From NCBI GenBank assembly GCA_965655095.1, contig OZ296655.1:14446001-14510000 (forward strand): 64,000 bases of DNA, read 5' to 3'. Both the position numbers and the translations under genes were made by a program. How positions within the stretch are numbered: position 1 is the first letter of the stretch; every line of letters starts with the position of its first letter. A model generated the notes under the pieces. That model made no database searches and was not told the DNA's origin. It saw only the letters and a program-made list of their open reading frames with translations. Below, piece by piece: positions 32,900 through 64,000 of this stretch. The DNA comes from Haplodiscus bocki (Eukaryota).

Positions 32900-35800
32900 A
32901 TTACACTGCATTGGGGTATGGAAAGCCGATCTTGCACTCTACACAACAGAAATTTTTTATTGATTGCATGAAGCCCCAAATAGGATTAAACAGACTTTGA
33001 TATGAGAGAAAAACCCTTTCATAAGGTAATAAGATTTGGTGGAAAGATCGTGGCTTTTGCCCTGTTCTCGCACTGTCCTCGGCCCAGTTCCACATAGGTG
33101 GGATGCAAGTTGCCACAGTTTTTTACATGTGGCTGAAGAATTGCAACGAAATACAATATTTTTAGTTCCGTAGCCTTCTGCAAAGATGTGAATGTTCAAT
33201 CTGAATTTGACTGGGAGTAACAACAAAATGGGAAACTGTCCGACGGAACAAAGTTTTTGCCAGTTTGTTGAAAAAAATCGACGGGAATTACGGGATAAGA
33301 TGACCGTTCTGACAATGTTTCAAAACAAGGACCTTCATGGAAAAAGATGTTTCTGCGTCCAATAACGCAAAAAATTGTTACAAAGGTTCTGCGTGGGCAT
33401 TTTTCAACATCATGACCTTTTTCCTGTCGGCAGAGGTTATAGTTTAGGCGAAGTGTAATTGCTGCAACCATGGTATGACTCATGAACATTGAAATTTCCC
33501 AATGTTTGCCAGATTAGCGTAGACTTGAGGAAAGAGCAACTGGTTCTGATCATATTAAAAACAACTGAATGGTCAGTTTTTATTTGGGTTACTATTTTGT
33601 AGCACTGAACTTATGTTCGTGACAAATAACTGGATTATTGATGCATATATTCTTCTCACTACAGAGACAACCATTTGATACCATTGATTGAGAACTGTTT
33701 CTTGTCTCACGGTGGGAGCAATTGTGGTACTTCAACGACACACCTATTCCATCCTTTTCCACTTCAAAAATTTCATGGATGCCTTCTGCCGACAGTTTAC
33801 TGTTTTTTGTTGCTGAGTATCAAACTTATCGAAGTTTTTCAGGTTGCAGAATGTAAAATTTTGCCACGGCGATTTCAGGATCAACATTTTGGGATAAGGT
33901 TGGTCATTCAACAAACCTCTTAAAAAGATCATAGGCTGCTCAAGTTGCTCACGCGTCGGGCATTTCAAACGCTGTTTACGAAGCTGTTTTCTTTCGGACA
34001 GGATTGGCAAACATCAGTAGTTAGTTTTCCCGTTCATTGTGACACCCACGCTTGCAGGTTACTTCGAGGGACGCAAGGTTTCGATGGACTTGTATAATTT
34101 TACAGGCATCAATCAAAACAGCTCTGGAGTGTGAATCCAAGCGAAAAATTTTGTTTTCAATTGACTGTTTTCATGTAAAAATCTTCAACAGTTCGAACTC
34201 TAAGTGAGAGAAAATCGAAGAAATTGACCAAACTTTGAACTGTTGGCGTACCTCTGGTTTCTCAGAAGCCAGGTTTTCATCAGTTTTTGTTCTTCAGCCA
34301 ATCAAGTCGAATAATTTGAAAATTTGCCTCTTTTTGCTGGCTGTGAGCAAATCTTTGAAAACGCTGGCCAATTCGAAACTGAGTTTTGCAACTGAACTTT
34401 GCTTTGATTTTGTATCCAAATCCCATTGGAATCACAGGGTAACTTTTTGCATTCGTGGTTCAATTGTTTTACTTTGATACTTTATGGAATCACGAAAGTA
34501 AACACTTTACTCGATAACTGAAAGTTATTTACATTCAATTTTGCCAAGACTGGTTTCCAGGTTTATCTGGAGCAACATTAGAAGTAGCAGTTTTGAATAA
34601 ATTGCGAGGTTGTTTCAAAAATTTGGTCTGGAGAGGGCGGTAATTTTTCGTTTAGCAATTGTTGCAAAAAATTTTTAAAAATTGTCTGAGTTGGAAACAA
34701 TGTATAGGGTTTTTAAGATATCAAATTGATCTTTATGTTTGCTGAGTACCCCACTGAGAGTGAGCACTTTTAATTCCTAAGGTCTGAATCAGAAATTCAG
34801 TTGTTTTTGTAGATTTGACGGATGTTTTTCAAGTTTTACGATTTTGTTGTGCTGGTTGCTCAGCAACCGTCGGCGTGATTTCTCAATTGGATTGTTGTTT
34901 TTTGCGAGACGAATGTTTGTGATCTGATTACCCAGCACCTGCACGTCCGACAAGGTGGTCTGTTAACATGAAGAGATAGTGGCTGCCTTGTTCACTGGTG
35001 CAACAAGTTTCGAAATAAACATGTTCCATTTTCTGTTAGCAGCAGAAATTTGAAAATTGTTCATTTGAAATCATACAAAACACCCGGCTACCTCCCGGAA
35101 AAATTGCGCCCTCCAACGTTGTTGAAGATGCTTTTTTAGGAGCATGAAAGTGTTTTTTTTTTCAAAATACTCTGTTTCCTCATCAAAATTTCTAACTTTT
35201 CCAACTATAAATTTTTTCTGACTTTTGCCAAAAAAACACCAAAAACAAAGTGGAAAGGGATTTGCGAGAAAAATATCCTTTTGAGACGCATTCTAGATAA
35301 GGTTTGCACTTTGAAAAGAATGAGACCGAAAAAATAAGCTTTCGCAAACCGTTCCAAAATTGGGTTTTCTTTAAAGTAAATAACGCGTTTTCCGAGAAAA
35401 ATTTTCTTGAAGTTTTCTTAAATCGCTAGAAGCAACAAATTTGCAGTAGAATGCGACTGGAACTGTAAGAATTCTCAAAACTTTCATTTTTGAAAAATTT
35501 CATTGTTTTTTTTAAACCCATCTTCTTAGAAGAAAAACCTAGGTTTTTAATTTTTTGAGAAACCCTACTTCTTTAGTCGCATTCTACAATCAATTTGCTT
35601 ACTTTAGTGATTTTGAAACATTCAAAAATATTTTCGAGAAAACCTATATATTTCTGTAAAAATCCCCAAATTTTGATCATTTTGAGAAAACTTACTGTTT
35701 TAGTCGCATTTTACTGCAGATTTGCTACAATTTGATGAAAAAAACTCAGAAACGTGAATAACCGATGTCGGCTCGTTTACGAAAGCTCAATTAGCAAACA

Positions 35801-38800
35801 TAAAGTAAAAAACCGGACCTATTTGAGAGAACGATTTCCCTTTCACATTCTTAAGAATATGGCGCAAATAAAAATTGTTTATGGAATATTGTTCTGCATC
35901 TTTTGATATGCTTACTCTCCTGAAATGAATGCTGTCTCACCAATACGTACTTTGTCAGTGGATTCTGTTGAAATGGTTAAAGACGGGCTCCTACTTCCAT
36001 TTTCTTTGATTTCACGAGTCTTATTTTTCCTTTAGCGCTGGGAAAGGCCCTGCCATTTTTTTTCTTGCAAACATTCTACTCCTGAAAGAAATGTTGTGCC
36101 TTTTTATCGCAATTACAGCTATGTAGCTGTGTTTGAGAATTAATTTGTTTGCGTGAGGTGGTCTGTTCTGTAATAGGCAATATACTTCAGCGAAAATACA
36201 ATTGTCACTTTCCTCATTTGTTAGTAAGCACTGCACTATATGCTTGTGCTTGGTTCGTCTGTTTTGATGATACATCGTCTTTTTCCTTTATTTTTGTTTT
36301 GTCTAAAATTGTTGTTGTAGCAGCTTCGTCCCTTTTTCGAGCAGCATGAGAAAATTGCTCCCGTTTTCGTCGCCTAAACGGATACTTCTGCGCAATTTTG
36401 GATGCTTCCGAAAAAAAATCACCCATGAAAACAATTGTTACTTTCCTGAGACCAAAAAAAAAACATCACCAATGGTAAACAGTGTACAGTTTGGCATGAT
36501 TTCTTGAAAATGTCTTTGTCAAGCTGGAAGAATCATGCAATGAGACCTGGAGCCTACTACTGCCCTAACAAAACTATATTGAGGATGATCAATGTGATGG
36601 CACTTGCCTACATGCCATGATCAAGAGGATATAATTCAAACGAACTGTTGAAGAATTGTCCGCGAGGAATACGTTTTCTGAAAATGACTTCAATTCTTTC
36701 AATTCTGTGCAGGCGATTCAAAATCCTATTTATGGAGATATAGATCATTAACTGATTAGACCGCTAGAGAATCAGATGCTATCCAAAACACTGCTGGAAT
36801 AAAGCTTGCTGTGATTGAAATTCTGTCGGTGCCGGAGCAGACGCAATAGTCTCCGAGACAAAGTTTTTGCTTTGATTTCTTGTTTTTGTTTTGTTTCATG
36901 AAATGAAAGATAGGCATGAACAAGTGTTACCGATGATTTTTCAGAAGAAATTAGGATTTTTGGTGGTTAGTCTCTTAGCGGGCTTAACTACGGACCAAAG
37001 AATTGTATTGAGATTTTGTGCATCACAGGTTAAATTCACCTCGTTTCGAAATTCCAAAGCTGTTTTGCTGAGCCTATTTGCAATTTCAAGTGTAAAGTTG
37101 GAGTGTTTGTCATTATGTACTGAGAGCATTTGCTTGTCTTCACGACTTATCGTGAAAATAGTTAAGTCTTCCGCAAATTATCGTAAGAGTTTGTGTTTCG
37201 TAGAGGTCAAATTAAACAGGAGAGGAGTACACAATTCGCCCTAGGCAACATTTACAATGAGGTCCGTGAACATTATTTGTTGCGTTGGAATACCGTTGGC
37301 GTTTTAAAACCCCAAACATATCTGCATATTGATCAATGCAGTGACGACTTGTTATTAGTTTTGAATAGCGCCGTTTATGCTACCATATGGTTTTGTTGAT
37401 TGAAACACTTCCTGGGTGATTTTTCCTTCATTCCATTGAATTGCGACTGCCATTTTGATGCTGATAATCGGAAGTGCCGGTTTTTTGATGCAATATGTAT
37501 AAATGTTTTAGGAGTCCAGATTTTGTTACTGGTATCCATGGGACATTTTCTTCTTTGAATTACATATAGACCAAAAGAAGTCGAAGGAATTGTTTTATCT
37601 CTTCTTCAAAATTTAACTTTCGAGTATATTGAGAATTATTGACATGGAATGGAAGAGTTTTTTGGAGATAAACTCTGTAAATGATTTCAGATTCAATTTT
37701 TGTCCCACATCAAATATACCTGACTTGGCAGTGAAGAGTTTTCAGGTTTTTATTGAAAAAAATGGAAACTGTTACTTTTTTTTCATCGAAAAAGTTCCGA
37801 TGGGCGTTTCACCGTAATCAGGAAATGGGACCGTAAAGGTTGATTTGTATTTTCTATCGTAAGCCCTTTCTGTTTGCAACTCATCTTCTCTCAGTTTTTG
37901 AGAAAGAATAGACAAGTAACTGTTGCTGAAGTAACAGGCGGAGAATTCCTGCACAACAACCAGAATACTTTCTTCACGGGAAAAGATTTGGAGCCGGAAA
38001 AAGTGATCAGCCACTGCGTTTTTTTAAAAACCATCTACAAAACTAAAACTCCCACTTCACGAAGGGACGTACGAGAGATTGGCCATTTTTGCTCATTGGA
38101 ACAGTAGGGTTTGTTTTGTTGTCATTCTTTTTCCGTGCAAAGTCCTAAAAACAACTTTGGGATCCTTAACTGCCTGTTGGCTTTGTTGTAGAGGTAGCAG
38201 AACCTATCTTTTGGAACACGTGGCCAGGGGATAATTGAAAAATTCAGAAGATTGCAGTCACCAGTCCAACGTTGTTTTCATTAACGTAATGATGGAAGAT
38301 TTCCCGCCAAAACCCGTTTGACCTCACCCACACACCCCCAACTATCTTTTGATCAAGAACATGACCCCAGGTCGTCAGTTGAAGAGGTCTTTTTATGATT
38401 GATGTTCTCCAGTTGCCAACTAGTACGGTCAAATTGAATCAACTGCGTGATATTGTGACTAGGTTGGCAAAGTATGGAAACCACAGTCAGTGATGAATCC
38501 TTCATTCAGGCGTTGTACCAAGTGAAAGTTTGTAGACCTATGTCAGCTATTGTAACCCCAAAAAAGTTGAAGTATGTTATCGGTAGCGTTCAGCAATCGC
38601 CCAACCGGCCATTCCACTACAAGATGCCAACCAAAATGTTCAACATGAGGTCCGTTCCTATTGCTTTTCTCAAAAAACCTAGAGCTTACGTCCTTTTTGA
38701 AGTCGAAACACAATGGCGATATCAAGAGTGCTCATTTGTGAAAATCTTGTATCAAGTAGCATCCCTCAGAGCCCCAGTTTATTTCATTGTCTATGCTTTA

Positions 38801-39830
38801 GCAACTCTAGTTGACACGCTCGTTCACGTGAAAGCGTTTTACCAACGTGCGTTAAAAACAAGGAAACCTAGGTTGTTTTCCCTCCTAACTAGATTTGTTC
38901 TGGCTGTTCAAGTCTCACTTATTAAAAATCAGTTGTTGTTTTTTAATTTTCGGCCATAGAGTTTTTCCTAAAAGTTGAGAACGTTTTCCAATCAGATAAA
39001 CGTTTTGGGAAAAAGTTTTCCTAAGTTCCTTTTCACCGACTTCTGATGACGTTGTCATTCGTAGGAGATGATTTGATTCTTCCTGTCAGGAAATATTCAT
39101 TTAATTTTCTCTTTCACTTTTCACGAAAAACAAGTAGGAACATTTGATGCGTGAGTCTTTCGGTGCTAAGTTCAATCTGTCAAAAAAGTATGCAAAAGAA
39201 ATCAAGCTATATTTGGGAGTGAACAAAGTTTGTAGGTAAAAACTGTTACTAGTGGCTTCCATTTATACTTTAGACAATTAGAGAAGTCATTTGGACACGA
39301 AAAGTCAGTTGAAAGTTCAATTGTCTCTCTTCATAAAATTGTCGCGGTGATCAAGTTGAAAAACACTTAAAGCTTCAAATCATACATAAAGTAGCTTAAG
39401 CGAATGTGGCAGTGTGTGAAGCTCATTGGTCGATATTGAAACAACAGGCTTTTAGGAACAACTACAAACAGGAAAACGTTTTGCAGCTTTTGAACCTTTC
39501 AAAACTAGCTGTTCAGACATAATAGCGTTTTATATGTCCTTCTTTGGCCTGGTCGTTTCCAGTGATTACCGGAAATCAGTTTTACTCTCAATGGTTTGTT
39601 TTCAGGAAGTCAAATTTACTTGTCAACCTTGGGTGTTATTCTTAAGATTTTCATGCGTGCTATGACGTCACAGAAATTTTCAGTTCTGTAGCCCAAAGCT
39701 GAAACTTGGGAGCCTTTTGTTGTGTGTTTCAAAAATGCGTTTCAATTGGTGTTCACTTGTTTTCTTCAGCAAGAACGGGTTTCTCTAGCGAACAGAACCC
39801 TTTGCACCACTTTGTATTCAGGGTTGTCAG
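32900..39830. mobile_element. Large unknown element, degenerate copy A (left end unresolved)
   Basis: Collinear with copy B: 34740-35000~47780-48030, 36490-37250~48215-49110, 38520-38720~50600-50800 and 39600-39830~51730-51960. Confidence 0.7.
35075..35873 (+). mobile_element. Non-autonomous repeat inserted into copy A (same family as 660-1146)
   Basis: Shares both ends with 660-1146. Four copies of an AGTCGCATTCTAC-like motif, one inverted (~35284, ~35445, ~35575, ~35702). Absent from the matching position of copy B. Confidence 0.7.
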
Positions 39831-39833
39831 TGG
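39807..39833. other. att-like site S1 (left arm interrupted by 9 bp)
   Basis: CCACT[TTGTATTCA]G-GGTTGT-CAGTGG at the junction of copy A and the ~1-kb module. Confidence 0.55.
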
Positions 39834-42800
39834 ACCCGCTGGCGATGGGAAGTAACAATGAAGAAATTACATCATACCGCACCTAGGCTACGGGAAACCG
39901 ATTTCCGATCCTACCAGAAAGAAGATTTTCACTTTTGCATGCTGTTGTAAACTAGCATTAGAAAAGCTTTGTTGAAAAAAAAACTGAAAAAAATTTTTTT
40001 CGTTCGAGGCGGGATTATACGTGATGGAATAATTGTGTTTTTTTCCCTACTTTCAAACTTTCTTCGGCAATGTCCAACGTCATCCCCATACAACTGGTCC
40101 AAAATCTGTGTGCGAGATAAAATAAGTGTGAGCAAACTGTATGCCAAAAAGTATCGGCCGTTTTTTTTCAATTCGGGAGATAGGCGCTGACAATTTCCGG
40201 AAATTTTCGTGAAAAGCGTCTTACCGTCATTTTCGATCACGAAATTCAACTTCTTTCTGTTTTTTCACCTTCGTGAAGGGAGTAATAGCTAAACTTGTAA
40301 TGGAGTGGGATCAATCAAAATTTCCCATCAAGCTGCCAAAAATTGTATGTATTTGGCGGGAGAGAATTAACGGATATGACGGTTTTTTGAAAAAAAAACT
40401 AGGAAGGTTTGCATTCTCAGAATACCGGATAAGTTTTGAATTTTTTCAGCGTAGTCTCAGCAGTTTTTGCTGAAAGTCCGGTCCGACAAGACGTTTAACG
40501 CCCAAGTAGTAATGTTAAACTTTTATGTTGTAATAGGTTTTGAATCAATTTTCAGTAAATTTTTTTTCAGCCAAACTTATACAAATCGTTGCACATGGTG
40601 TCTAGTTCTGATCTGAAAAAGATCGTGAACAGCTGTGATGACCGGAAGCTTTTGTTTTGGTTACGAAAAAGTAATTCGCATGATGACCCAATCGTTAGGC
40701 GTGACTCTGGATTCTACAATTTTTTTATTCTTACATTTTTCCGCTCCAAGTACGATGTCTGGTTACATTAAAGCATGGAGGGTTTCATCAAGCCCCCGTG
40801 TCTTTCATAAAACGTATTATCTAATTCCACTATCTCTTTTGCAAGTTTAGGAAGAACTGTGGGCAATTATATACACTCAATTCAAAATATTTGCTAGAAG
40901 ATTTCTTCTTGTAACATCATTTGTCTTGACCAAATTTGACGTTTTTTTGTTTTCCTTACCATTTCACGCTTGAAAACCAAAACTGTATGAGTTCTTGTAG
41001 AATCACACGTTGTAGCTATTTGGGCGTAACACTTAGAAATGTGTTTTTGTTCTTTATATTGTTTGAAGTAGTTTTTGGTCGGCGTCTCACATGTATTATA
41101 TTGGCGTTCAGCAAAGAATATGTTCCAAGGTTGTTCTGTCTGGTGTCCCACATCAACGATCTTTTTGTTGAAATAAGTTTAGTTTTTTAGTGTAATTGTT
41201 TTTCAAGTACACGAAGTCTCGTTGCAAACTTCCAAGTCTGGTATCTTCGACACTAAACTGGGAATGTCACCTGCGTTGAGGTAGTTAACTTGTTTGTTAA
41301 AGCAAGTACACAAATAGACTGAGTTTTTCGAGTTAATTCGATGCAAATACTATGAAAAATCAATTATGGGGGATTGCATTTATCTTTGGAAATTTTTTTG
41401 AAGAAGTTCAAGTTCATTTCGACAGAATTGTTTCTGTGCAATACGTCTGTTTATTCAAAACTATTCTTTGACTCAGTTTTCTAGACATAGGCGCAGCTGG
41501 TCTTCATAATAAAACTTTTCAATCATCTGATTTTCGGTAAGTGATGAACTATTATTGTAAATTCTGTTAATGGTTTGGTAGTCATTACCATCAGTCTTTT
41601 TCAAAAAAGAAAACTTGCTTATGTGAACGATGTTGGAGAAGTCTTCACATCGAACGTCACATTTGGGTTTTTTTGTTGTTTGTCCCCTCACGGTCATTTC
41701 CAGTTCTAGCGGAAAGGCCGTTAGGGTGAAGTTTCTGTGACTCGCAGATAGTGACTTTTGTTTCTGTTGGGAAGTGGTACAAAATTACAAATCCCTGTCT
41801 TTCGATGAAAAAACATTTGTGTAGAGAACCTAAGAAAAGCGCAAACTTTGCTTGCTTTTTTGACAGTAAAGTCTGCAACTGATTCCGATTATCCTTGGAA
41901 AGGGCAACAGTTGCTGAAGGCTATGTTGATTGGTGAATAACTTCCTCTTCAGCATTCAATACCATGAGTTTTATCTCGAACGTGCCGCATTCAACAATTT
42001 TTTGCACAGACGCCACTTTGATTACAGTTTGCAATGGTTTGGGAAAACCGTTTGTGGGGAAGCTTCTGAACGCACACTGATTGGGTGCCAACCCTTTGAA
42101 AAACTTGCTTCGTCTGCAAACTCATCCTGTTCCAGTTGAGGGCAATTACTTATTCTTCGTTATTGCCAGGTCAATTGGGTCACAGGCTTGGTGCCATCCA
42201 AAACTACTCCATCGTGTTTGTCCAGCTGAACCCTCGTTCCATAATGTTTTTCAATATTGCGAAACACACAAGATGATGGAAATGGTGTGGTGGAGACAAC
42301 TTCAAACATGAACGATTCTTTGAATATTTCTTTAATGTGATGGAATGGTGTGTATAACGTTTGTATATAGATCTGTGGTTTCAACTAAAATTGCGGTGAT
42401 TCATGTTTACAATTGCTGCTCATTGACAAAACTGTGGAATGTTTATAAGTATGCCGGAGATTGTGCCTTGGTGGACGTCCTATCATTTGTTTGATTATTT
42501 TTCAAGCAGTTAACCATTTATAAACGATAGCAGCGTTTTCAGCAGTAATTCCGTTTTCAAAGCGAGTCTCATATCACGGACGCAACAAGAGTTCAACCGA
42601 AATACTATGTCAAGAAGGAATCTTATCTCCGCATCTTTTCATTTAACGCTTGTACTTCAAAATGTAGTGGGTGTTCAGAATTCAAAGTTTTTCCTCATTT
42701 GTGCGATGAAAGTCTCACATCAACCTCTGTAGTACTGAGCAATGTACACAACGACTTTTTGTTGCCCGGCAAAAACTCGTTCAGCGTAGCAAAAGATGAT

Positions 42801-45800
42801 TGAGAAACTAGCGGTACCGAAAAGGCTCCCCTGAGCCCAGCTGTTTCCTCTAAGTTCTTGTCTCGGTCGATTCATTTCACGCAACCGACACACACAACGG
42901 CACAGCCAGAAAGATAACGGAGATTGGAGATTGATAACGTCAGACGACATGAGGACGCCTCAAGTAGATCTTGTATTTTCGCGTCCATTTTATCTGCCGA
43001 CAAAACCCGCGATGGAACTTTGCGCTAAATTTTGTCAGATTTCAATTTCTGTTTTTCCTTTCAAACTGCAAACTCTTGAAAAAAAAGCTAACAAACGCTC
43101 AAGATTTGTTTTGGGACCCATTGTTAAGTGTTTGGATTCCCAAAGTTGTTTCTCTTACAATAACGACGGAAACTCTTAGAGGTATACCTGGTCTTGGGTA
43201 TTTCATTATTTACTAAAAGATCTCACCATTCCAGGTTGTAGTTGAGAAAACTTGTTCTTTTTCTACCTCCTGGATTATGTGACAGTTGGGTTTTGTTTCA
43301 ACAATCGTATCATGGCGTCTGTAAAGTTAATCCAACTGTTCTAGTTAACATAACAAAACAAAGGTACGTTTTTTTGAACAAAGTAAATTCGTGATCTTTC
43401 AATATTTCCGAACGAAACTTGGCCACTGAATGTTATCCAATTTAAAGATGTCACTTTGGATGTTTCTCATTTATTAAAGAAAGGGGTCACATCCGTTTCA
43501 ACATCGGTCACATTGTTAATTGGATTTCTTTTCATTCACATCGTTCATTTCTGATTACTTGAACCTTCTGCGATGTGCCAAAGGCAATTGTTTGAAACCA
43601 ATGAATGTTCTGGATGCGTTTGTTTTTTCGAGCTTTGTCAATGTTAAAGATGCATATGTTATACTTCAAGAACTTGTGTTCATCGTCACAAAGAGGCTCA
43701 CCAGAAATATCTTCAACCGCCTGATCACACGTCAAAGGGACGTCTCAGTTCTGCCACCACTGACAGATTGGCATTTGCTGCTCCAATTTTGCGTGTCTTG
43801 AAAAATGCCGAGCGGATAGGGCTAGACATACTTTCCAGTTACAGAAAAACGCTGATATTGATTCAAGTTTTTTGAGCATTCTGTTGATCTGTAAATGACG
43901 GTGGGGTGTCACGTCATATCTGTCAGTCAAGGCCGAATCCCAATGTGGTTTTCACTGTAGCTAACTTAAGTGCTTTCTGAACAAATTACTGCTCGCCGGC
44001 GAACAGAGTAATTAAATTCAACAAGGTTTTGCAACTGAAACCGATACTGAAGGCTGGACTGTTTGTCTTTTGGCATCAACAATTCTGTCTGTTCTGGATA
44101 TTTGCATCTGTTCAGTAATCCTAGTTTGATTGTTGGAAGACGCCTATTCGCGAAATTCAAGCTGATACGGTTGCTCAGCCTCCAGTTTTTGAGCTCAGAG
44201 AAGTACTTTCTGTTGTCGCGGCCAACGATATTCCTTATCTCTCCTCAGCTATGTTGATCTATTTCTAAGGCAGCTGCTGTGGGTAAAACGACTTTACTTA
44301 TGCTGCATTTTTTGGATTGTGAACTTATCTCGAGGTTCCATTGCTGCAAAAGGAAAACTTGGGATGCTTTGGTCATTAGTGAACTGTCAGAGATACTTAG
44401 TATATTTCCAGAAAACTCATCTTGGTGCCTCGGTTCCAATGCTTAAAAATTTTTTGATAATCTCATTTGGTATGACGTAGTGAGCCGTCAGGACATTTTG
44501 AATGTTTGGGAAGCTCAATAACTTTGTGGTGTAAATGTCAAAGTTCTTCTTACGATTAAGCGAACACACTGGGTTCTAATTTCAAATTTTGATTGAACTT
44601 TCAAATTGCTCAGTCTGTTTTCCCGTTGAAGTTCTTTGTCGATTGAAGTTTACAAGCTCGTCCTAACATTCTTTCAAGGCATGGTGGTTTCGTGCAAGGT
44701 TGTAAGTGGCCAAACAAAAACGTATATTTCCTCAATTGGTGTTTTTGCCTTTCGATATAGCGATTGATTATTTCAAAATTGCCATTGGAACACCTTTGTT
44801 GATTGTTGACACCCGTCTGCCGATGTTGATGGACTGTCGATTTTGAAGCACTGGCAAGTCAATGAAAATTTCTTTGTAAGGAATATTCTCTGCGACTGAC
44901 AATTAGTTCTCTTTCCAATGGTTTCAAAGGCTTTTTGGGTACAAGTTTCCTATTACAATGTCCAGTGAGTGGTTGTTTGACAAATTTTTGCGAATGCTTT
45001 CTAGTGGTGAAAATCAGGAAAAATAGTTTGTTTCTGATGTTAACAAAAAAGTCTGTGTTGAGTTCGCAGCAAATTCACCGCGTGAGTTTAGTCACTTAGA
45101 TGAATGTGGCTTTAGTTTTGCTTCTGTTGAGTCATATAATCGGTCTACTTTTTCTACCAAAACGGTTGCGTCCTTGGAGTTTGTTACGGATGATGAGCTA
45201 ACAGAGGAAGAGCTTAATGAAAGACAGGCAAATAGTGCTAAAAGGTCAAATTTCTGAAAGGAATGCACTGACTCTCAAATCCCACTACATCTTTCAATGA
45301 GTGTTTAATGCGGTTTACTGAAAAGTAGTAAGAGTCTACTGCATGTGTGTCCACTAGACACACAAAAATTTTGGAGAGCATCACCTTGAAGCCACCACCT
45401 ATTTTTGTCCTTTTTCTTCAGCCGGAAGCCATGTTGCTGTTGTCCAGCTTTTGGCGTCAAAACGCAGACGGAAAAAACTCGGCTGCAATTCCTTCTCTTT
45501 TGTACAGAAATCACAAACAAAACGAATTGCTGGACCTCGTAAGCTTAGCAGCATTTGCAAGCGAGCCTGAAAGAGGAGTTTCTGTTGATGCCAACAGATC
45601 TCTGTTACCTCCATAATAGTGTCGACACGTGATTCAACCTACAGCCGAGAAAAATCACTAACAGAGGTTGGAGTGAGACAGCTCGTCTAAGGTGAATGAA
45701 CATGCCATGCGAGAACGGGTCATGTTTTTGATCGACGCGTTCTCAGAAGGAAATCGAAAAATTAGAAAAATCGGTGAAAGAACGGCCGGCAATTTTTTTC

Positions 45801-51800: not shown

Positions 51801-51950
51801 GAATCATGTTTTTCTGCCGTCTTTTCTGTCGAAATTGAAGTTTGTCAGCGTTAGTTTTTTTGCTGAAATCCTTTTAAATTGATGATCACATCTTCTACTC
51901 CAGCATTCACTGGGCCTATCTAGCGAAGAGAAAACTTCCCTCCATTGGGT
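39830..51950. mobile_element. Large unknown element, degenerate copy B (truncated ~1-kb module 39830-40450 plus gene-dense body)
   Basis: The right part is collinear with copy A. The left part is collinear with copy D: 41760-41880~57775-57895, 43110-43330~59120-59330, 44910-45040~60835-60960 and 46410-46570~61338-61498. Confidence 0.75.
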
Positions 51951-51959
51951 GGTCAGGGG
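51942..51959. other. att-like site S2
   Basis: CCATTG-GGTGGT-CAGGGG. Confidence 0.6.
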
Positions 51960-52935: not shown

Positions 52936-52953
52936 CCACTGGGTAGTCAGGGC
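52936..52953. other. att-like site S3
   Basis: CCACTG-GGTAGT-CAGGGC. Confidence 0.6.
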
Positions 52954-53149
52954 TCTTTAGCCAAAAACTACGTGAGTCTCGGTGGAGGAGAACTGCAAGC
53001 GAACCGTTATATATACATCATCTACATTTAATTAATTTTACTTACAATAAAGCGTTTTTGAAAATGTTCCATAGATAGTTGCTCGAACGTTGCGCGTGGT
53101 TTTCTATATTGATGTACAAACAAATTTCTGCTGGCGTTTTTGCGCGATA

Positions 53150-54470
53150 AATTTCTAAACGGAGTATATGTGGTAATGATGGTTTCTTCTATCACATCTC
53201 TTGAGTTTTCAAATTTAGGTCAACTTCTCTCCATGGAAGAAGTTCAGCTGCGTGTAACCGTTACTGGTATGGCATTTTGCTGAAGAACCTTTCTGATAGT
53301 ACCCCCGTTTTCCGCTGGGGTGCACTGACACGGATTTGCAAGGCAATTCTATTAGTTTTCTCAGGCTGATTTTTTCTCGCCAGAATAAAGAGGACATATT
53401 GACCGTTAAAAAAGACCGATCGTCAATTGAAAGACTGTTGGCTACAGATGAGTGTTAGATACCGTGGTGCAATCAGATTTTACTTCGGACCAATGGAAAA
53501 ATGCTAAGGTTTTCGGGTCTACTAACATTTTACTCAGTCAATTGACTAAGTCAGTTGACAGAATAAGTCTAGAAATTGCCTCAGAGATTGATCTTAGGAA
53601 TATGATTTCTTTGTGTTTGTTGGTAGTATTCACCAGGACACGTTCGATGCTGTACTTGATTGGTCAACCAGGGGTGCCACACAGTGCCGAAAACAACTGC
53701 GTGCCCTTTTAGAGAGTTCGTCACTACAAATTGATTAATTTCTTGAACAAGGAGGATCAAAAGGGAACAAAGAAGTATTATAGGCCACCTAAAAGCATAA
53801 CTACGATGCAGTCCAATTTCACCCGGTAGCAATCAGAAACATGTTGGTATTTTCCCTATTTCACGGAATGACAATTTAGCTTTTGAATCGATACACCATA
53901 CAAAATGGAACTCTTGAACATCAAGGAAGACGTTTACGACCATGGGCTATCGGTGTAAAAAGTGTGGGCAAAAGAGAGTGACTAATGAGGTACCTTTGAC
54001 ATTTACCTAGTACCGATACTAGAAAAGTTAGGTTCTTTGTGTACTCTTTTCAGTTAGTATTTTAGAATTTGTAAACGTTTAATTAGTCATTTGTTTCTGC
54101 TAGTGCTCAGAACACTAGTGTGCTCAAAACGGTAAGATCCAAGAAGATTGAAGTTGAAAGTAGGCGGTCGCTATTGTTGCAGTTTCACCCTTCTATTGAA
54201 CCAAGAAAACTGGAACCCTATAATGTGTGAAAACTTTCCTTGAGTTTCCTCTGACATCCCGTGTCCTGCGCCTCAGTACAAGTTTAGCTAGCCCATAGCT
54301 ACTGCCTAGACGTTATTTTCTCAGGAGCTTACCGCATTGTACAGCTGAAAAAAGAGTGGCACTTTTGATTCACATTACTTTAATCAGTTATCGACTGAGA
54401 GAGTTCCTTTCCACATGGCTGGAAAATTTATCACGTCGTCCAGCTGTTATGCCTTTCAGTATGAATGAGG
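53150..54470 (+). pseudogene. Decayed tyrosine recombinase (DIRS/Crypton-like catalytic signature)
   Basis: Manual translation across stops and frameshifts. Box I AIRNMLVFSLFHGM[T; ACA at 53871 is one change from Arg AGA], then KKCGQKRVTNEVPL. Box II LTSRVLRLSTSLA (R at 54269). ELTALYS[TGA at 54346 is one change from Trp TGG]KKSGTFDSHY (Y at 54376). The W-x4-TF-x3-Y spacing matches DIRS-type recombinases. The start is uncertain. Confidence 0.55.
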
Positions 54471-54526
54471 GCAACCAAATAAGCTCTACGGCCACAACCA
54501 TGCTTCTAATCCTGCTTTAATTCCCT

Positions 54527-54544
54527 TCACCGGGTAGTCAGGAG
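54527..54544. other. att-like site S4
   Basis: TCACCG-GGTAGT-CAGGAG. Its downstream flank (G-rich tract then AACCGTTA at 54597) resembles that of S3 (AACCGTTA at 53002). Confidence 0.55.
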
Positions 54545-55647
54545 TTTGTGCTCCTCAAATGGTTGATGCTATGCGGGGGAGGGGGTGGCCCGGATCAACC
54601 GTTAGCTAAAGAGGCAATGGTTTTCAACCACGGTTACGTGAAACTTCAGGGTTCCGCTATTACTTTCCAGAAGTTCCATAAGTTTGCAATTGCAACAACA
54701 GATAAAACAAATTCTGTTTTGTTCCTAAAACGTTTTTTGTGATGTGCATAATATTGAAGCATTTCGCACTGACTTGTTCAGAAGAATCAATTTACTTTTT
54801 TCAAGCACGTACAACTTTGTTATCACGTACTACCTCTGAACAAGATTCTTGTATATCCAAATAGTTCCAATTATAAATCCAAAAAAATCTGTTTTCTGCA
54901 TACTACAACTAAATTATTGTAGATGCGGTTCCTCGAGCCAATAAAAGGGTTCCAGGTGATCTCATCCAAGAAACAGATTGAAAAACACTGAAATACACAA
55001 TTACTACTATCTGATACAGTTTTGAAAACAGCGGCCTCGGCTCCTACCCATGCAATTCCGATGAAATTTTGAATGCGGATATAATTCGGAATTCTGAGAA
55101 AAGTGTTGCAACTTAGAATATTCTCGCCAATTTGGTCCGGGAGTTCTGACGTAATGATTCTGTTTCTTTTGGCCAAATTTCACAGTTTTCTTCTGCTATT
55201 GCCGCAAGCAACCTTACGCAATTGGCCCAAAGTTTCTTTGTGAAGCATACTATCCCCGGGCAAAACACATGAAAACAATTTTAGTCGAAGCCGTCATAGG
55301 TGTGAAGATATGACGGATCGAAACTGGCTAAAAAAGGCAGAAAATCGCTGATTTCTTCTTATCTCCAGGATTGTTCTACATAACTGGCGCACGGACCGCA
55401 AATAGTGAAATACATTTTCTGGGCTGACATGACGGATAACAAGTGTTTTCTAAAAAAAAGTTTCAACACAGACACAGTTTTTGTGGTAAACTTTACATAT
55501 GATATCTGTAAGGTCCTCGTGCTTTCGAAAACCGTTTTGCTGCATAAAGTTCTTGAAATTTGAGAACCTTTGTGGATAAAAAGTGTTATGAGGAAAATCC
55601 TACTCTGCGTTAATCTTTCAGGAAAGGGGTCACGAAAGTCAATTGTC

Positions 55648-55665
55648 CCGCTGGTTGTTCCGTAG
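55648..55665. other. att-like site S5 (strongly degenerate)
   Basis: CCGCTG-GTTGTT-CCGTAG. Supported by position: its upstream flank resembles those of S1/S2, and it is followed by TGCCGAGGTTGAA (55698), as S2 and S6 are. Confidence 0.4.
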
Positions 55666-56604
55666 ATCAGCAAAGTAACTCGGTGAAACAACGGGGCTGC
55701 CGAGGTTGAACAATCATACAATGAAAATAAAACACGTGGCACAGGGTTCTAGCAAAAATTTTCGGAATTTTGCATGCAGTGTTAAAATAGGATGGTAAAA
55801 AGTTTTGAGGTGAGAAGTTTCTTTACCGCTCAGAACGTGATTAGATATGACGGAATGATTGTGTCTCACTCAATTTGCACATTGTCTCCGGCTTAGCTTC
55901 CCTTTGATCTAAGACAATCGGTCAGTTTTTGTATTAGAGGCACAACTACTGTGAGTACCTTGCCAGCCGAAATTTTGTGGTCGAGCCATCTTCGTTCAGG
56001 AGATAGGCGCAGACAATGTTTCAAAAAATTACGGAGAATGGGTCAATTGGTCTTTTTGGATTGGGAATATCATCTTTTTTGTTTTCTCAGCTTCGTGAAA
56101 GAGGTCTAAGCTGAAACTGGAATTGAATGGGATGAAGAACGATCAAGAGGCCCAAAAACGACGGTTATGACGGGAGAAAAATGACAGTTATGATATAGTT
56201 TTTCGACAACAAACTTTCCCGAAAAAATTCATTTCTGCGTGAAGAAAACTCTAAACAATGTTACATAGATTTTGGGCAATTTTTTGTTTGTTTTTCGTTT
56301 TTGACCATTTTCACCTCTTTTGAGGCGCTTCATTTTTGAATCGCGGAAAGCTTTACCATATTGTTATGCCTCATAACCACTAAAGAGTCACGTTGTTCGG
56401 GAGACTGGCGAGGAGCTGATCGGCGTTTAGATTTAAAGAAAACAATTGAAGTGATCTCATCCCAATTGCTGAACAGTCACAAGGAAAAAAAGAATAGACT
56501 CAATTTTATTAATGTCAGCAATAGTATGCATTCAATAAATTTTCCAAAACAATCAATCTACGGTTTAATCGTATAGCCTCAACTATTAGTCGGTATCTTT
56601 TCCT
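55666..56604. repeat. ~1-kb non-coding module (second complete copy)
   Basis: Collinear with 51960-52935 over its whole length. Confidence 0.75.
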
Positions 56605-56621
56605 CCACTGGTGGTCAGTGA
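56605..56621. other. att-like site S6
   Basis: CCACTG-GTGGT-CAGTGA (core 1 nt short), followed by the palindrome GCAACCGGTTGC at 56653-56664. Confidence 0.6.
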
Positions 56622-59600
56622 TGTAACCTATTCAGTATTCCGAGCCCGGGCAGCAACCGGTTGCCGAGGTTAAAGAGTAGCGGCAAAGTGTGCCAAATGC
56701 TACATAGGGACTCTGAAACTGATCTCGGATTCTACTTGAAAGAAATTATCTTTCGTATTTTGCATGCGGCCCTAATATAAGATTCTAAAGGACCCGAAGT
56801 AGGCAAAAGCCTTTCACATTCCTAACGTGATGCTAGATGACGGAATGATTGTGACTTTTACCATATGTTTAGATTGTCTCCAGTCTCGCTTTATCTCAAC
56901 TCGATACAATCGGTCCAAGTTTTCTTTTAGGCAGAAAGATTTTGAGCAGGTTGCTAGCCAATTTTTTTTCGGCCAAACCTTCTTCGTTCGGGAGATAGGT
57001 GGTGACAAAAACAGGTCGTTGTGTCCTTTTTGGTCAGGAAACACAACTTCTCTTCGTTCCGTGTTCGCCTGAACGAAAGGCAAAGCTGAAAGTTGAATTG
57101 GTTGTGGAGTAGTTATGCATTGGACAAGGGTGATATTGAGAGTACAGTCACACATGAACTTATCCTGTTTACTGTCCGGCACCAACCAATCTGGTCCACA
57201 GTTAGTCTTATTTCATAATTACGTAATCTTTGTCTCCAAGTGCCGGATGTCTCGCCCAAGTCAATTATGCGTGGTATCTTCGCCAATGATATGGGAAAGT
57301 CGCTGATATGAAAATGCTGGTTGACCTTCTTTTCTGTCAGAGGCATCAACTTTATTAATTGAATTGTTGCAGAGACCATGAATATTCCGGTATCTTGACG
57401 GTAATTACCTTCAGATAAGATTTCGAAAATACGAAGGTTCCTTTTGACAAAATATTTCTGTATTGCATCTGTTGTTTAAGCTTCTTTCTTGACTCAGTCT
57501 GCTAGATACAGACGCTGCTAGTTTTTATAGAAGAACTTAACGCATCTGATTTTCAGGAAGTGTTGTACTCTTCTGTCTTAACTCTGTTGAAGGTTTGGTT
57601 TGCATTATTGTTCTCAAAAAAGGTAACTTTATTATTTTGATCGGTAGCGGAAAAGTCTTTACCTCAGAAATCATTGTTGCAATAGTATAGGTTTCTGTCT
57701 TCAGTCACGATCAATTGTAGTTTTTGCGGAACGGCAGCTCTGGTGAAAGCTGTTCGTGACTCGAAGAAGGCTACTCTTGTTTCACTTGAAAAGTGGGACA
57801 GACAGACAAACCGTGGCTTTTTGACGAAAGAGAGGCTGTGCAGAAAACCTGAGAAATGCGTAACGTGTGAGCGTGTCTGTGGCAGCAATGACTGCTTATG
57901 TTTTTCGTCATCGATGGAAAGTGCTTCTGTTGCTGAAAACTATTTTGGTTCTTCGGTGTCTTCCTTTGCATCAATCAAAACCAGGACACAATTCTCGATC
58001 GTGGCACCTCCAACAACACTTCTTTGCACGGAGTCCAAATTGAAAAGAAGTTGCAATGTTAAAAAAACCATCTCTGCGGAAGCCACTGAAGACAGACTTG
58101 TTAGCTACTGCCTCTTCTCTTTTCCTTGCTCCAAAAACTCAGCCCGTTCCGGTTGAAGAGAATTGTTTGTTGCAGCTTTGGCAGTGTACACTGGATTGTA
58201 ACCTCTATACTGTTTAAAATCACGCCATGGATATTGTTCGGTTTTAATGTTTCTTGAGTTTGTTCCGCGTTTTGTGAAATTTTACTATAGCATTGAGGTT
58301 AATGTTGTGGTGAAGACTGCATCGACTGTGAACGACTATTTGAATTGTTTCGGAATGAGAAGGAAGGGTGTGTTTGGTACTTGTGAAGAGATTTATGATT
58401 TCGTTCAAGCTGCCGTTTTTGAGATGTTTACTGCAAATTTGTGGATAGGGTATAAGTATGTCGAAGGTTGTGTTCTGGGTGGAGCTTCCATCTGTGTTTT
58501 TGTTTCATACCCATGCAGCTCAACATATTGAAACCGCAGTGGATTTGTCTGCAAGTAATCATCTTTTCAGGCATTTTTTAACTGCAGGCTGCATCCAGAG
58601 TTCGTTCGAATGATCTAAACCACAAAGAATCTGATCCCCCCATCCTTTCCGACGAGGAATTATGCTTGAAAGTGTAATGCGTTGTCTCAATTTAGCATTT
58701 GGCGTCATTTGTCAGATGAATGCTTCACATCCTTCTCCGCTGAATCGCGACGAAGATACAACAATTTTCTGTTACCGCGCAACTATTCGTTGATCTGAGT
58801 GACAACTGATTGCATAAAAAGCCTCCAATTGTGCTCCCTTGAGCCCAAACACTACCTTTAGAATCCAGACTTGGGAGATTTTTGTCATACAAACAAAAAG
58901 AATGACTCAGCCACAATTGTATTACACAAGGACATCATCCGTCGACAATCGAATGCCGTGATTTTTTCTAGTTTTGGCGACTGCATTTTGATTAGCCACG
59001 AATACCAAAAACCGGGACACTTTTTCATTTAATGCTATCGGATCTCAACTGATGCTAATCCCTTGAAACGGTTAACTCTTGAACAAACAACAATCGAACA
59101 TTCTTTGGTTTGCAATCGACTGTTTCGTGTTTAGTTCCTGAATGTTGCTTTTGTTACAATAACGACGAAAGATTTGGGTTGTATGAGTGAACTTCCGCAA
59201 CTCATTCGATACTGAAAGGTCTCAGAATTCCAGATTGTACTTTAAAAAAAGTGTTGCTTGGTTACCTCCTAAAATACGTGATAGTTGGGTTGTGTTTCCA
59301 CAATTCTATCCTGCTGTTTGCGTGGCTGATCCAGCTGTTTACTTTGATATTACCAAAGTAAAGCAAGTTTTCTGAATAATGTAAAATCTAGTCCTTCTAC
59401 TGATTCAGGGGAAGCTTTGTAGACGGGAGGTTTTCAAAATTGTAGATGTCCCTTTGGGAGTTTCGTCTTTTTTGAAAGAACAAGTCACATCGGTTTCAAC
59501 CACCTTCTAAATGTGATTTCGCTTACACTTACATCTTTCAGCTCCGACCCCTTGAGCTAACTTCGAGGTGCGAGTGATGCTTTGTTAAATCCATGTGATG

Positions 59601-62600
59601 TTTCCGGGTTTCTCAGTATTAATGACACATGACCGTGTTTCAGGAATTTTGTTCATAACAAGAGGGTCTCATTTGCAGTGTCTTGATTTGTAAACTCATT
59701 TGTATTTGGGACGTCCCAGTGTTGCTAACACTGGCAAGTTTGCGTTGGATTCTCAAATTTTGCGTATTTTGAAAACTTCTCGGCGAGTCACGTTGGTCCT
59801 GTTTTCCATTTCGTGAAGGCTGTAGCTAAAACTTCTGTTGGTTGGAGCATTGTTTGAGCACTAAGCGACATTCGGATGCGATTTCGTATCGGTTCTTCAA
59901 AGCGAAATATCAAAGTAGTTTTTACCCAAGCGATTTTCACAACTTCCTAAATAATGTTTTGGCCTCCGGCGATGCAGCTGCTTTTCTTTTAGCGTCAATA
60001 ACCGCGTTTTTCTTGGAAAAATATTGATTTTTAATTCTTCTGGATTATTTAATAGACACTAGTTGTGCGCAAAAATCAAATTTGTGACGTTTGTTTACCC
60101 TCCGAACTCCTTTGGTTTCTCTTTTTCTAGAGAGTTGAGCTCCATGTTTTAGGTTTTGTCCTTGCTGCGAACAAAGTTCTATATACCTCGCGGATTTTGT
60201 AGATATATTCTTGATGCAGCCTTTGTCGATTGTACGACTTTTTTGATACAATTTTAAGACCCTGTATTTTTCTCTAGCTTCCGCTGCACCAGATCGAAAC
60301 CGTTGATGCTTGTGTGAGTGATGAACTTTCAAAGTTTCATTGAAGATTTCCTGAGTGACCAAACCAGTGTCTTGATTTCGGTGATTCCCATTTTTCTGAT
60401 AAAGTATTTTATTATGCTGTAACAAGTCGTCAAAATCTGTTGCCTTTTTTGGAAGCTCAGCATTTCTCTGGTATGAGAGTGATGCTATGTTCCTGCAGAC
60501 GGGTAGTATTTCAACGTTCTCAATTCAAAGTTCCAATAAACTTCAAAACTGCAAAGTCTGCTTTCGAGTTGAAACTTGTTGCCACTAAAGGCTTAGTGTT
60601 TCGCAATTTTTTTTGACGCCTGGTAGTCTCTTCGATTTTTGTGGGTCAGCAAGGCAAAGTTTTTTCTTAGCAATTAAGATTGCTCAGCAGTATGTTGGTC
60701 AATCACTTCACAAACGACTATTACAATACCTGTTTTCTATCGAGGTATGTCTGCCAACGTTGACGAACTGAGGTCAAAAATCTTTAAAAACATTTCTTGT
60801 GAGAATCATTTGCTTTGCTACAGACCCAAAATTTTCTTTCTAGTGGCTGCAAGTGCTCATCTGTTAGAAGTTCTTTTCTACGCAATCCACTGAGGGGTTG
60901 TTTGGCAAGTGTTTGCAGGACATGCATTTCAATGACAGCAAAATATTTTTCATTTCTGATTGGTTTCATAGTGAACTTGGTGAATTTCCTCAAGTTCACG
61001 CTTTGATTTGGACTGCAAAAGATTGCTTCAGTGAAACAGTGGAATCTAATGTTTGTTGCTCCACAACAACGTTCCGGTGGAATTTATTGACTGCACTTGG
61101 GTTGCGCAGTTTTATAGTGGGTGATTGGACTCGGTTATGAGACTTGTTTTACCGCTACCAGCCATAAAGTTGTTTCAGAGCTAATTTCATAGTCAGATGA
61201 AAACTGAAAAATGGAATGAAGTTTCCTGCTGAACGCCCGAATACTTTATTTCTGCTGGCTTTACCTACTAAAGTATTCACAACCACCTGTCGGAAGGAAC
61301 AATAACAGTTTCAAAGAAACACTGATTAGCCGATTTTAGTGACTTTGATTGTTCTGTCAGCATTGATCGGCGTCTATGTGGTGGCAAGCATCATTATCGA
61401 ACCGAAAATGACTCATATATTTCTCCAACATACTCTCAATTTTTGCCTTCGACCGATCTAGTACCAGTCTGAGAAATCTGCGTCAAATACATGAGTAGCC
61501 AAATTTCTCTCAAAGTTTGTTTGGGGCCTTCGAGTGGAAGACGTTTGTACGACTTCCATTTTCAAGAAAAGTCGAACATCAAAAGTGCTGGAATCCAGCT
61601 GACAAAAATGAAGAAGGCAGGAAAACGTGGAAAAAAGTCTTTAACCTCTCGTATGTTGAGTATGGCTGAATCTCTGTGGCGGTCATTGAAATTTCTTTAC
61701 GTTGTGACCAACACCCAAGTGAATCGCGTTGCCACTGACCTGCAAGAGGAACGGTCTGGAATAGTGATGGAAGCGAAATTCAGATTTTCTACTACCATTC
61801 AATGTCTTCTCCTTTGGGAGGCAGTGCTCCGTTAGACACAGCAAGGGTTTGCTCCTTACCGTTGCTACACGGAAAAGCAGAAGCTGCCTATAATTGATGC
61901 CGAAAAACGTACCCAATCTCAGGCCCAAATAACCGTTTTTGGTTTTTAACGCCCCCTGAACCAACCTCAGTGCTCAAAATGGAAATCTTATTCAACGGGT
62001 TCTTGCGCTTCCTAAAACCCTTAAAGGTCACACCCGAAAGTCTACTGAATGAAAGAATTAGGGATGGCTGGATGACCTCGGTTTTTGCATACGCCTTGAA
62101 GTTTTGTACAATGCGGCTTTTTCGAACTACTGTCGGAACTTTTGCAATAGAGTCCCCCTTTCTCCAGGCAGTGTTCTGAAGCAATAACATGTACAACAAA
62201 CGCTAAAGAAATTTGTTCAGTTTTGCTAAAAACTGAAACAAAACTGTTTTTTTTTCAAACATCGTTTCGCAGAGTACAAATAACCTTGCGACTCAAATTT
62301 TGAAATCTCTGGGCCAGCACATAACCAAAAAATACTTTTCGTCCCAGCCAACTAGGAATTCTGTTTCTGTGAGGCTTCTTTTGCGAGATGCCAAGTTTCT
62401 GGAGTTATTGATCTTGTTCGGTGTTTAGTACTTGAGCAATTACTCTTTCTTTCGGGGCCATTTACCTTTGTAGATCGTTTTTCTGCAAGTGTTTACTTGA
62501 GCTTCCAGCAAGCAGCACAAAATACTACAGTGGTTTTTCCGTGCACGACGCCCTGCATTTTAGCAGGGCTATCGGTAGCCAAATTTCTGACGATTTAGAT

Positions 62601-64000
62601 GCGCAAAAAGAAGCTTTGTTTTCTCCGTTGTTATTTTTTCTTACCGATATATGAAATGTGAACACAACCTCGGTGCCTCATATTACGTGGAAGCGAAAGA
62701 TCCGAAAAACACGCCACAACCAAATTTGAGGACTCATTGGAGTAGGTATAGAAGATTTTGGTGTACGCTTTTTTTCATTAGAGAGTCATTGATCTTCTAC
62801 ACTGCCTTTAATAAAGATCAGGTCACAGTTGTTCCAACAAGTACACGGAGGAGCCATAGAAAGCTTCGTTGTGTCTTAGCGACTCTAGCTGGTGGCTTGC
62901 GATGCTTCGTAACGGGTGTCACTGCCGATGGAGCATAAAGTTTGGTAAAGAGATAAAGACAAACAAAGGCTTCAATCCCTTTTCCTGTTGTTGAAAAATA
63001 AACCTTGAGTCAGTTTGTTTCATATGTTTTGAAGAGACTTCATCAAGTTTTTGTGGAAGTTACTTATACGGAGCGTTTGCATGATTAATTCAATGATTCA
63101 AGCAGATATCTGGTCAGCGACGAACGTTGTTTTGCACGCCATTTATGAAAAAAGTCTTCATTTTGGATAAAAGTTGTCCTTTCGATAGATAAATTTTGTC
63201 AAACACCACCTTCGTCAGGAAATTTTTTTTTTGCTCAGCAATTCTGTGTTAGCTATTTTCGAACTCCAGATTTTGGAGCATTACGTGAGGATGGGAAACC
63301 CACAAGGAAAGAGGCTTCTGGATTTCATCTTGAATTTGTATGTGTCAGGTGCAGTTAATATGACGTGTTTTCAAATCATCGGCAACACCTGTAAATTTTT
63401 TAAAAAATGGTTGGACTCCACTCCGGATAGTTTGAAAAGGTTTAGTACAAGAGGTATAGAAACAGAGGCTGTTGAGGCGCGATTCTTTTTGTAGAAACAA
63501 AACAAAACGTGCCGAAATTTTTTTTCAAGCAAGGTTTTCAAACAGGAATTCAAATTGGGGTTGCTGCAACAATACCCTTAAACAAGTTTTCGAAAGAAAC
63601 GTTGCTTCGAGCCAGATGGTTTGTTCATACAAGTTAGGTGTGTATTGCGCCCTATTTCTAGTATGCCATTGCTGAAAATACTCTGTAGGCAACAGTGTCT
63701 AGGTGAATGATTCAATGAAAATGATGCAAATAATGTTCTTAGCGTATCTCAGGCCGGAGTAAGTTCTTTGTCACCGCACATACCAAACCTGGATTCCTAA
63801 AGCTGTGTTGTTATTCGTAAAAAGTGTTGCGTTCTCCATCAAGTTAACAGTTCCGGAATCTGTAGATTTGTTCAACTTCCTTGTAAATCTATGCGGCTCC
63901 AACAGTTCACCAAAAACTGGGTGACTTTGATCCAAGCTTGACAACCCAGATTGTTGGTTGTGAAAATTCTCATTCTGGTTGAAAGAGCAATTTTGCGTAG
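56622..64000. mobile_element. Large unknown element, degenerate copy D (truncated 1-kb module plus body; runs off the window)
   Basis: Collinear with copy B, with conserved decayed reading frames such as SDFDCSVSIDxRxCGGKH (+ strand, ~46410 and ~61338) and FxGxLHxxxF...FVxLxHFxxETxV (- strand, ORFs 41657-41878 and 57664-57888). Confidence 0.75.

Follow-up and report, generated by a model that had tools for sequence, protein, structure and literature searches.

A decayed tandem array in the Haplodiscus bocki genome as a fossil chain of GIY-YIG-bearing Helitron-like elements, likely built by insertion at resident junctions

What kind of element fills a stretch of DNA with large, badly decayed head-to-tail repeats? 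The question is raised by a 64,000-nucleotide region of the Haplodiscus bocki genome (the window; G000:C8:14,446,001-14,510,000 of a 1.5-Gb eukaryote assembly, contig OZ296655.1), in which self-comparison finds same-orientation (+) repeats from ~32,900 to the window end. A sequence-only reading of this DNA had seen a gene-dense element without recognisable hallmark genes, either an endogenous DNA virus or a cargo-rich giant transposon of an unfamiliar class. The array is instead a chain of GIY-YIG-bearing Helitron-like rolling-circle transposons that likely grew as single elements entered, one after another, precisely at resident junctions. This interpretation draws on the sequences themselves: on observed gene content, intact catalytic motifs, ends, target, precision of insertion, mixed single-orientation chains and differing neighbours.

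The head-to-tail array described in that reading is real, and its junctions (32800, 39823, 51949, 52943, 54534, ~55655 and 56612) lie almost exactly where it had placed them. Within the window, copies A and B are 58-82% identical, and copies B and D 59-69%. The younger copies that it had proposed to seek genome-wide also exist, at more than 99% identity and with open frames that make the suggested consensus unnecessary: a 1.1-kb probe has at least 37 genome matches, many spaced ~15.0 kb, and six of eight young copies are 99.8-99.9% identical to L009, while the other two plus one more are at 91-96%. The full unit is 15.0 kb, with young tandem copies spaced ~14,994-15,005 bp, and the window copies differ in their deletions, as that reading had noted.

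An intact copy carries all of its genes on one strand: a 2,749-amino-acid (aa) protein, RepHel, followed by two further open reading frames (ORFs), ORF217 (217 aa) and ORF330. RepHel occupies one open frame at L086:558-8807(-), with Pfam matches above cut-off to Helitron_like_N (PF14214, E 2e-7), PIF1 (PF05970, 4e-13) and, at the C-terminus, GIY-YIG (1e-8); an OTU match below the Pfam cut-off (E 3e-4 to 3e-3) is present in three other copies. Among solved structures, the helicase matches Pif1 proteins (5e-14) better than it does Helraiser (1e-7); the nearest solved relative of the GIY-YIG nuclease is SLX1 (4e-8). Rep motifs 1-3, the helicase motifs and the GIY-YIG residues are kept in 23 aligned proteins. 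Moreover, the ratio of nonsynonymous to synonymous substitution rates between two subfamilies is 0.12 for Rep, 0.13 for GIY-YIG, 0.13 for ORF330 and 0.20 for ORF217 (0.12-0.44 across all parts). While a single-sequence fold of ORF330 gave a predicted local distance difference test score (pLDDT) of only 32, a model from a 17-row alignment reached 78.9. Its best Foldseek matches are RPA/CST and other OB-fold single-stranded DNA (ssDNA)-binding proteins (E 6e-5, with TM-scores of just ~0.25), and VIA gave Z 9-10 over ~100 residues of the first OB domain, at a root-mean-square deviation of 2.5-3.6. On this model ORF330 is a predicted RPA-like OB-fold ssDNA-binding protein. ORF217 has no Pfam match and, in the loci examined, no homologue outside the 15.0-kb family (family A). 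One further frame, at L201:4745-8887 (-), fuses the RepHel N-terminal part to ORF330-like sequence, probably via an internal deletion.

These genes also settle what the window holds. Rep and Pif1 motifs had been wrongly reported as missing: tblastn places RepHel remnants at 33531-34110, 41592-47535 and 57761-63999. The conserved frames that had been recovered on both strands largely dissolve: one peptide is real (SDFDCSV, in the Rep domain) and the others are artefacts, as are the bidirectional ORFs built on them. FVKLEESC lies out of frame within ORF217, and the GRL..C peptide is read from the strand opposite ORF330, in a frame with 14 stops in a young copy. With three genes only, on one strand, the unit is neither gene-dense nor cargo-rich. 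An endogenous DNA virus or Polinton-like element would fit the large unit and the tandem copies, and the ORF330 fold also matches baculovirus LEF-3 (E 9e-5). However, intact copies encode the RepHel transposase and, besides it, only the OB-fold protein and the 217-aa ORF; capsid, pPolB, packaging ATPase and rve integrase have no Pfam match among the 13 ORFs of intact copies, and none of 55 pattern matches in viral contigs (IMG/VR) was confirmed as a relative. Non-autonomous derivatives and CTRR ends are, furthermore, transposon traits. The virus reading is thus largely refuted, and its probability is now very small. DDE transposases (KDZ and others) likewise have no Pfam match in intact copies, and no target-site duplication was found.

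The ends and the target show how precisely these elements are joined. The element starts GTGG(T/C)C, rarely TTGGT, and ends CTGG or CTAG (5'-GTGG...CTRG-3'). Genome-wide, 493 of 521 pattern-defined 5' ends follow CTRG (0 in the reversed control), and 147 of 152 distinct junctions follow CTGG or CTAG, the starts among the 152 being GTGG in 145 and TTGG in six. The ends are not inverted repeats; by eye, with no systematic search for terminal inverted repeats (TIRs) run, elements of the CTGG group show no more than a 4-bp complement (GTGG/CCAC). Within the element, 30-50 nt from its 5' end, is a hairpin, GGG-NAGGGN-CCC. The motif was found six times across 66 metagenome loci (390 kb), each time on the same strand as RepHel, versus 0.14 times in shuffles. 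Family A has no hairpin in its final 70 nt, before the 3' end (z = +1.19), but this does not hold generally, since one other family bears a GC hairpin ~50 nt before its end. All ten array heads seen follow CTNG, and array flanks consist of AT-rich DNA, a satellite or other elements. At L221:3249-10000, a ~39-kb mixed array is inserted precisely into a satellite of ~370 bp with alternating subunits. The flanks of the array at C1:135.68-135.72 Mb join at offset 0 on six of eight matching intact satellite units; insertion was therefore precise and without duplication. The host empty site reads CTNG^GTG, and insertion is exact at this site and duplicates no more than 1 nt. Duplication of a 4-bp GGTG target was considered and ruled out by a TTGG-starting family that sits between CTAG and GTGG; GTG is thus not a duplicated target, and the shared bases are limited to one G. 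An empty-allele search at a two-unit array on C7, whose flank is single-copy, found the insertion in both samples compared. In addition, some 3'-truncated A copies end at an internal CTGG followed by a new 5' end (L041, C3:133900584; L051/L052, C4), which may reflect either early termination or insertion at internal sites.

Membership of the Helitron superfamily is evident from HUH Rep motifs 1-3 fused to a Pif1 (SF1B) helicase and from the absence of target duplication; at superfamily level, this is the Helitron match that the sequence-only reading had weighed against its own proposal. Its "giant transposon of an unfamiliar class" holds in part, in that the Rep falls outside HLE1 and HLE2, the ends and target are unusual and the chains are mixed; gene-dense or cargo-rich the element is not. 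Relatives are widespread: 30 are full-length, including Perkinsus olseni and Skeletonema dohrnii proteins, and 66 loci come from metagenomes, ten of them with an ORF330 homologue. A Rep profile finds 546 clusters at E<=1e-30, a total that may include canonical Helitrons. Among the best 150 of these 546, 67 have a complete helicase, of which 61 have a GIY-YIG match (two weak) and five of the other six end within 33 residues. The Rep motif-2 spacer is 7 residues long in 97 of 103 scored, versus 5 in the genome's own HLE1 and HLE2. In a quick, unrooted Rep tree, 31 clade rows stand apart from 10 HLE1 and 7 HLE2 rows (SH-aLRT 99); seven of the 50 proteins chosen were left out for lack of the Rep regex anchor, and five HLE2-like Rep frames from this genome were added. 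DUF6570 and AP endonuclease are absent from 14 clade proteins at E<=0.001 and present in the HLE2 controls L187/L188. The genome also holds canonical HLE2 (DUF6570, OTU or UCH, AP endonuclease) and HLE1 elements (L187, L188, L190), so that three Helitron lineages coexist in it. The HLE1 elements have animal relatives, which point to a host that is probably a marine invertebrate.

Point-by-point comparison places the element beside both named groups and inside neither. Like HLE1 (Helraiser, PDB 7lcc), it has a HUH Rep-Pif1 fusion, a 3' CTRR end, no target duplication, non-autonomous derivatives, tandem copies and, in families A and B, an RPA-like gene downstream. Unlike HLE1, it begins with GT (or TT) rather than TC, targets CTNG^GTG rather than A^T, bears its hairpin near the 5' end rather than before the 3' end, and has the longer motif-2 spacer and a fused GIY-YIG domain; Helraiser itself is matched in the helicase alone. 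HLE2/Helentron elements share a large ORF with an OTU-like domain (in some families), an extra C-terminal nuclease, a 5'-end hairpin and reversed-ORF variants (Fusarium). They differ in carrying AP endonuclease where GIY-YIG is found here, in DUF6570, in a separate Rep branch, in their T^T target and in 11-18-nt terminal inverted repeats, none of which are evident here. From its sequence, the element looks like a distinct GIY-YIG-bearing lineage that works like a Helitron and lies outside HLE1 and HLE2.

Whether this lineage merely extends a group already described is a separate matter. HELIANO defines HLE1 and HLE2, with DUF6570 as the HLE2 marker and RPA downstream in HLE1, and in the parts covered (PMC11417382) reports at least four extra, unclassified clusters and GIY-YIG in one Sphagnum HLE2 family. 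A third, telomere-targeting clade is described in Paramecium in the parts seen of PMC13085455, with ORFs of 3,052-3,592 aa. It resembles the present lineage in falling outside HLE1/HLE2, in an orientation-fixed specific target that matches its own end, in ORFs of either orientation and in non-autonomous partners. Family B here (G000:C9:53093422-53110469; L087, L015, L016) also has its ORF reversed relative to the element ends, with RepHel and an ORF330 homologue both opposite to them, an arrangement shared with the reverse HLE2 of Fusarium and with clade B of Paramecium. The lineage could on these grounds be a divergent branch of the Paramecium clade or of a HELIANO unclassified cluster, leaving only the chaining new. 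This is unlikely, although a serious contender. The main text and supplement 1 of the Paramecium report (PMC13085455) contain no instance of "GIY", and the clade it describes, compared by description only, targets the telomeric repeat, ends in CCAA and carries satellites; here, the preferred site is probably another element's junction. The Sphagnum GIY-YIG family, as far as PMC11417382 was covered, has TIRs and TT insertion. The telomere-targeting Paramecium Helitrons are thus the nearest published parallel, by description and not by sequence.

Chains of these elements mix families freely. Autonomous families, namely A (15.0 kb), B (17.0 kb), C (18.0 kb) and others with RepHel, are interleaved with non-autonomous units that measure 1.0-3.1 kb and in which the longest ORF starting with ATG is 61-110 aa. 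Of the first 100 ends listed for C1, 95 group into seven clusters, each with a single orientation and the longest 258 kb across, although outside the arrays 93 kb of DNA contains 23 CTNGGTG sites, about one per 4 kb. In the 152 distinct junctions, 27 upstream types combine with 12 downstream types in 63 different pairings, and CTGG ends are followed by GTGGTCA starts in 70 of 75 cases, as against 9 of 72 for CTAG ends. From locus to locus, near-identical A copies differ in what adjoins them on either side. The A-type start is preceded by twelve upstream types and the A-type end is followed by at least five starts, with every join exact to the base. A metagenome contig (L151:9240-9310) offers a possible head-to-tail junction in another host: RepHel and an ORF330 homologue are followed by CTAG and, 50 nt on, by the conserved 5' hairpin. 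The long metagenome contigs showed no terminal repeats that would indicate circles, and CTRG^GTGG did not mark the contig ends.

The same elements might instead form chains mainly through rolling-circle read-through (concatemers, end bypass) with later recombination or block duplication, or through local hopping near the donor, without junction targeting. Pure A-A runs at 15-kb spacing on C3 and a block of one family-C copy and two passengers that is repeated at a 42,252-bp offset on C1 are what such processes leave, and tandem Helitron arrays and concatemers in plants and bats are known from the parts seen of PMC5876387 and PMC5148889. However, read-through repeats an existing order and could not create the first mixed junction, nor does it account for the base-exact variety of partners on either side of family A; local hopping would hit other nearby CTNGGTG sites in both orientations, whereas the clusters are single-orientation. 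As the main source of the chains these processes are improbable, although block copying and A-A runs indicate that read-through and recombination also contribute.

Several further points join the runs and the block in weighing against chaining by junction insertion in a separate lineage. The junction sample leans to loci around family A, and its junctions are not independent. Eight presumed array tails read GTG in five cases and GTC, ATTC and TATG in one each. Hairpin covariation gives modest support: of four pairs, three vary little or not at all, and the fourth, with both bases changed in 11 of 19 sequences, was scored in sequences picked by the motif itself. Whole-junction folds are no better than shuffles in five of seven cases. 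The quick tree takes HLE2 from two families of this genome only and HLE1 from one subgroup, and carries a long-branch warning. Chaining in other hosts is hinted at by the L151 contig only. 

Repeated insertion at resident junctions can be set out as a series of steps, which we infer from the Helraiser model as given in the portions seen of PMC5876387 and PMC13085455. Rep would nick CTRG^GT and stay bound via its tyrosine, the Pif1 helicase would peel off one strand, the OB-fold protein (ORF330) would coat it, and the next CTRG^GT would terminate the unit. The circle joint would read CTRG^GTGG, the same as the target, and tandem junctions equal this expected joint. Because joint and target coincide, every insertion would leave two new targets, and each junction would act simultaneously as end, start and target. 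The transposase would be recruited by a resident 5' end through its NAGGG-loop hairpin; such recruitment would make junctions much better targets than host CTNG^GTG and would explain the two end groups. The GIY-YIG nuclease, by its likeness to SLX1, may trim flaps or nick the second strand at integration, and would occupy the place of the AP endonuclease in Helentrons. A broader proposal, held tentatively and with a little less than even confidence, is that these elements form an undescribed major rolling-circle lineage whose range takes in this genome, Perkinsus, a diatom and aquatic metagenomes (hundreds of clusters) and whose marks are a fused GIY-YIG, an OB-fold protein of its own and a conserved 5' hairpin. 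Its junctions would be origin, terminus and preferred target, and its families, sorted into targeting guilds, would build self-extending mixed chains of hundreds of kb.

Measured against the young family, the array in the window is a long-dead fossil chain of Helitron-like elements, in which the 15-kb autonomous family is joined by 1-1.6-kb non-autonomous passengers. Of the four large copies that had been proposed, A, B and D stand, whereas "C" is no decayed large copy and consists of four units of 1.0-1.6 kb, three of which match non-autonomous family members. Because large and small units are mixed even in an array as old as this one, the chaining behaviour is itself old. Window copies are 60-72% identical to the young 15-kb unit and nearer to the young family than copy B is to copy D, a pattern that fits independent decay in place. 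On the map of the young unit, copy A comprises the 5' end and unit positions 9,337-15,000, B most of the unit with deletions, and D the 5' part. The region just upstream of copy A (32000-32799) has no family match, and the array extends ~32 kb past the window, to ~G000:C8:14,542,000. Its features in the window, with stops counted over tblastn high-scoring segment pairs (HSPs), are as follows:

32800-39822 (+): copy A, the array head after a host CTAG; 5' end fused to the last ~5.7 kb of the 15-kb unit by a large internal deletion (mapping on the young unit)
33531-34110 (+): copy A RepHel C-terminus remnant, helicase end and GIY-YIG (tblastn, aa 2553-2737)
35074-35901 (no strand assigned): unrelated insertion splitting copy A, with an internal inverted repeat at 35316-35712 and a relative at window 691-1172 (self-comparison and mapping)
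36299-36895 (+): copy A ORF217 remnant, containing the off-frame FVKLEESC peptide (mapping)
37907-38611 (+): copy A ORF330 remnant, predicted RPA-like OB-fold ssDNA-binding protein (mapping and structure model)
39823-51948 (+): copy B, 12.1 kb, collinear with the young 15-kb unit, with several deletions
41592-47535 (+): copy B broken RepHel, from the OTU region through Rep and lacking the helicase and GIY-YIG by deletion; 12 HSPs with 76 stops, overlapping HSPs included (tblastn)
48148-50734 (+): copy B ORF217 and ORF330 remnants (mapping)
51949-52942 (+): decayed ~1.0-kb non-autonomous unit, 64% identical along the full length of young L209:358-1401
52943-54533 (+): unit of 1.6 kb whose 5' end, after CCACTGG, is of the family type; no match for the interior
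54534-55654 (+): decayed ~1.1-kb non-autonomous unit with another 5'-end type
55655-56611 (+): decayed ~1.0-kb non-autonomous unit
56612-64000 (+): copy D, 5' part, continuing past the window and followed by two more large copies
57761-63999 (+): copy D broken RepHel, with OTU, part of Rep and helicase; 69 stops in 15 HSPs (tblastn)

Beyond the window, the ORF217/ORF330/3'-end block is duplicated, with a 3' piece inside the next copy's RepHel (L021:4461-8052, L022:402-1479). Directly upstream of the array, a 792-aa open frame at 29695-32073 (+) with a reverse transcriptase domain (PF00078, E 2.5e-36) belongs to a young-looking non-LTR (long terminal repeat) retrotransposon. Decayed LTR-retrotransposon-like pieces lie at 12050-13541 and 19311-25715, the latter including an RNase H domain at 21131-21607(-), and an inverted partial copy is found at 2616-4254.

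Chains of this kind have few parallels. The telomeric HeT-A/TART/TAHRE arrays of Drosophila are mixed head-to-tail chains of several related families, but those are retrotransposons added at chromosome ends, whereas the present chains consist of DNA elements and occupy internal sites. IS91 and IS200/IS605 recognise subterminal hairpins and, unlike RepHel elements, are without a helicase; they are not known to build long mixed chains. They share with the present elements a short orientation-specific target and the absence of duplication, as described in the parts covered of PMC10288648 and PMC5876387. Tandem Helitron arrays and occasional self-insertion are reported, and base-precise mixed chains do not appear, in the portions covered of PMC5876387, PMC5148889, PMC10288648, PMC6431247, PMC8788227, PMC11934779, PMC13404089, PMC12001565 and bioRxiv 10.64898/2026.09.17.752431. 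The literature searched, with Repbase and subscription journals outside its scope, holds no description of the lineage or of junction targeting.

The Helitron lineages named in the literature covered are HLE1, HLE2 and, since 2026, a Paramecium clade; the elements described here apparently add a further deep and widespread branch, one that structure-based finders requiring TC...CTRR or TT/TIR ends would miss. While the window itself is only a fossil of the chaining process, near-identical copies with open frames exist elsewhere in the genome and make hairpin- and sequence-guided single-strand insertion of up to 15-18 kb without duplication directly testable. The finding bears on the open question of how Helitrons choose their targets and what their accessory nucleases do, and it offers a transposon route to 100-kb-scale tandem blocks without satellite-type homogenisation. 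If the broader proposal is true, the chains would be a safe-harbour strategy made by the elements themselves.

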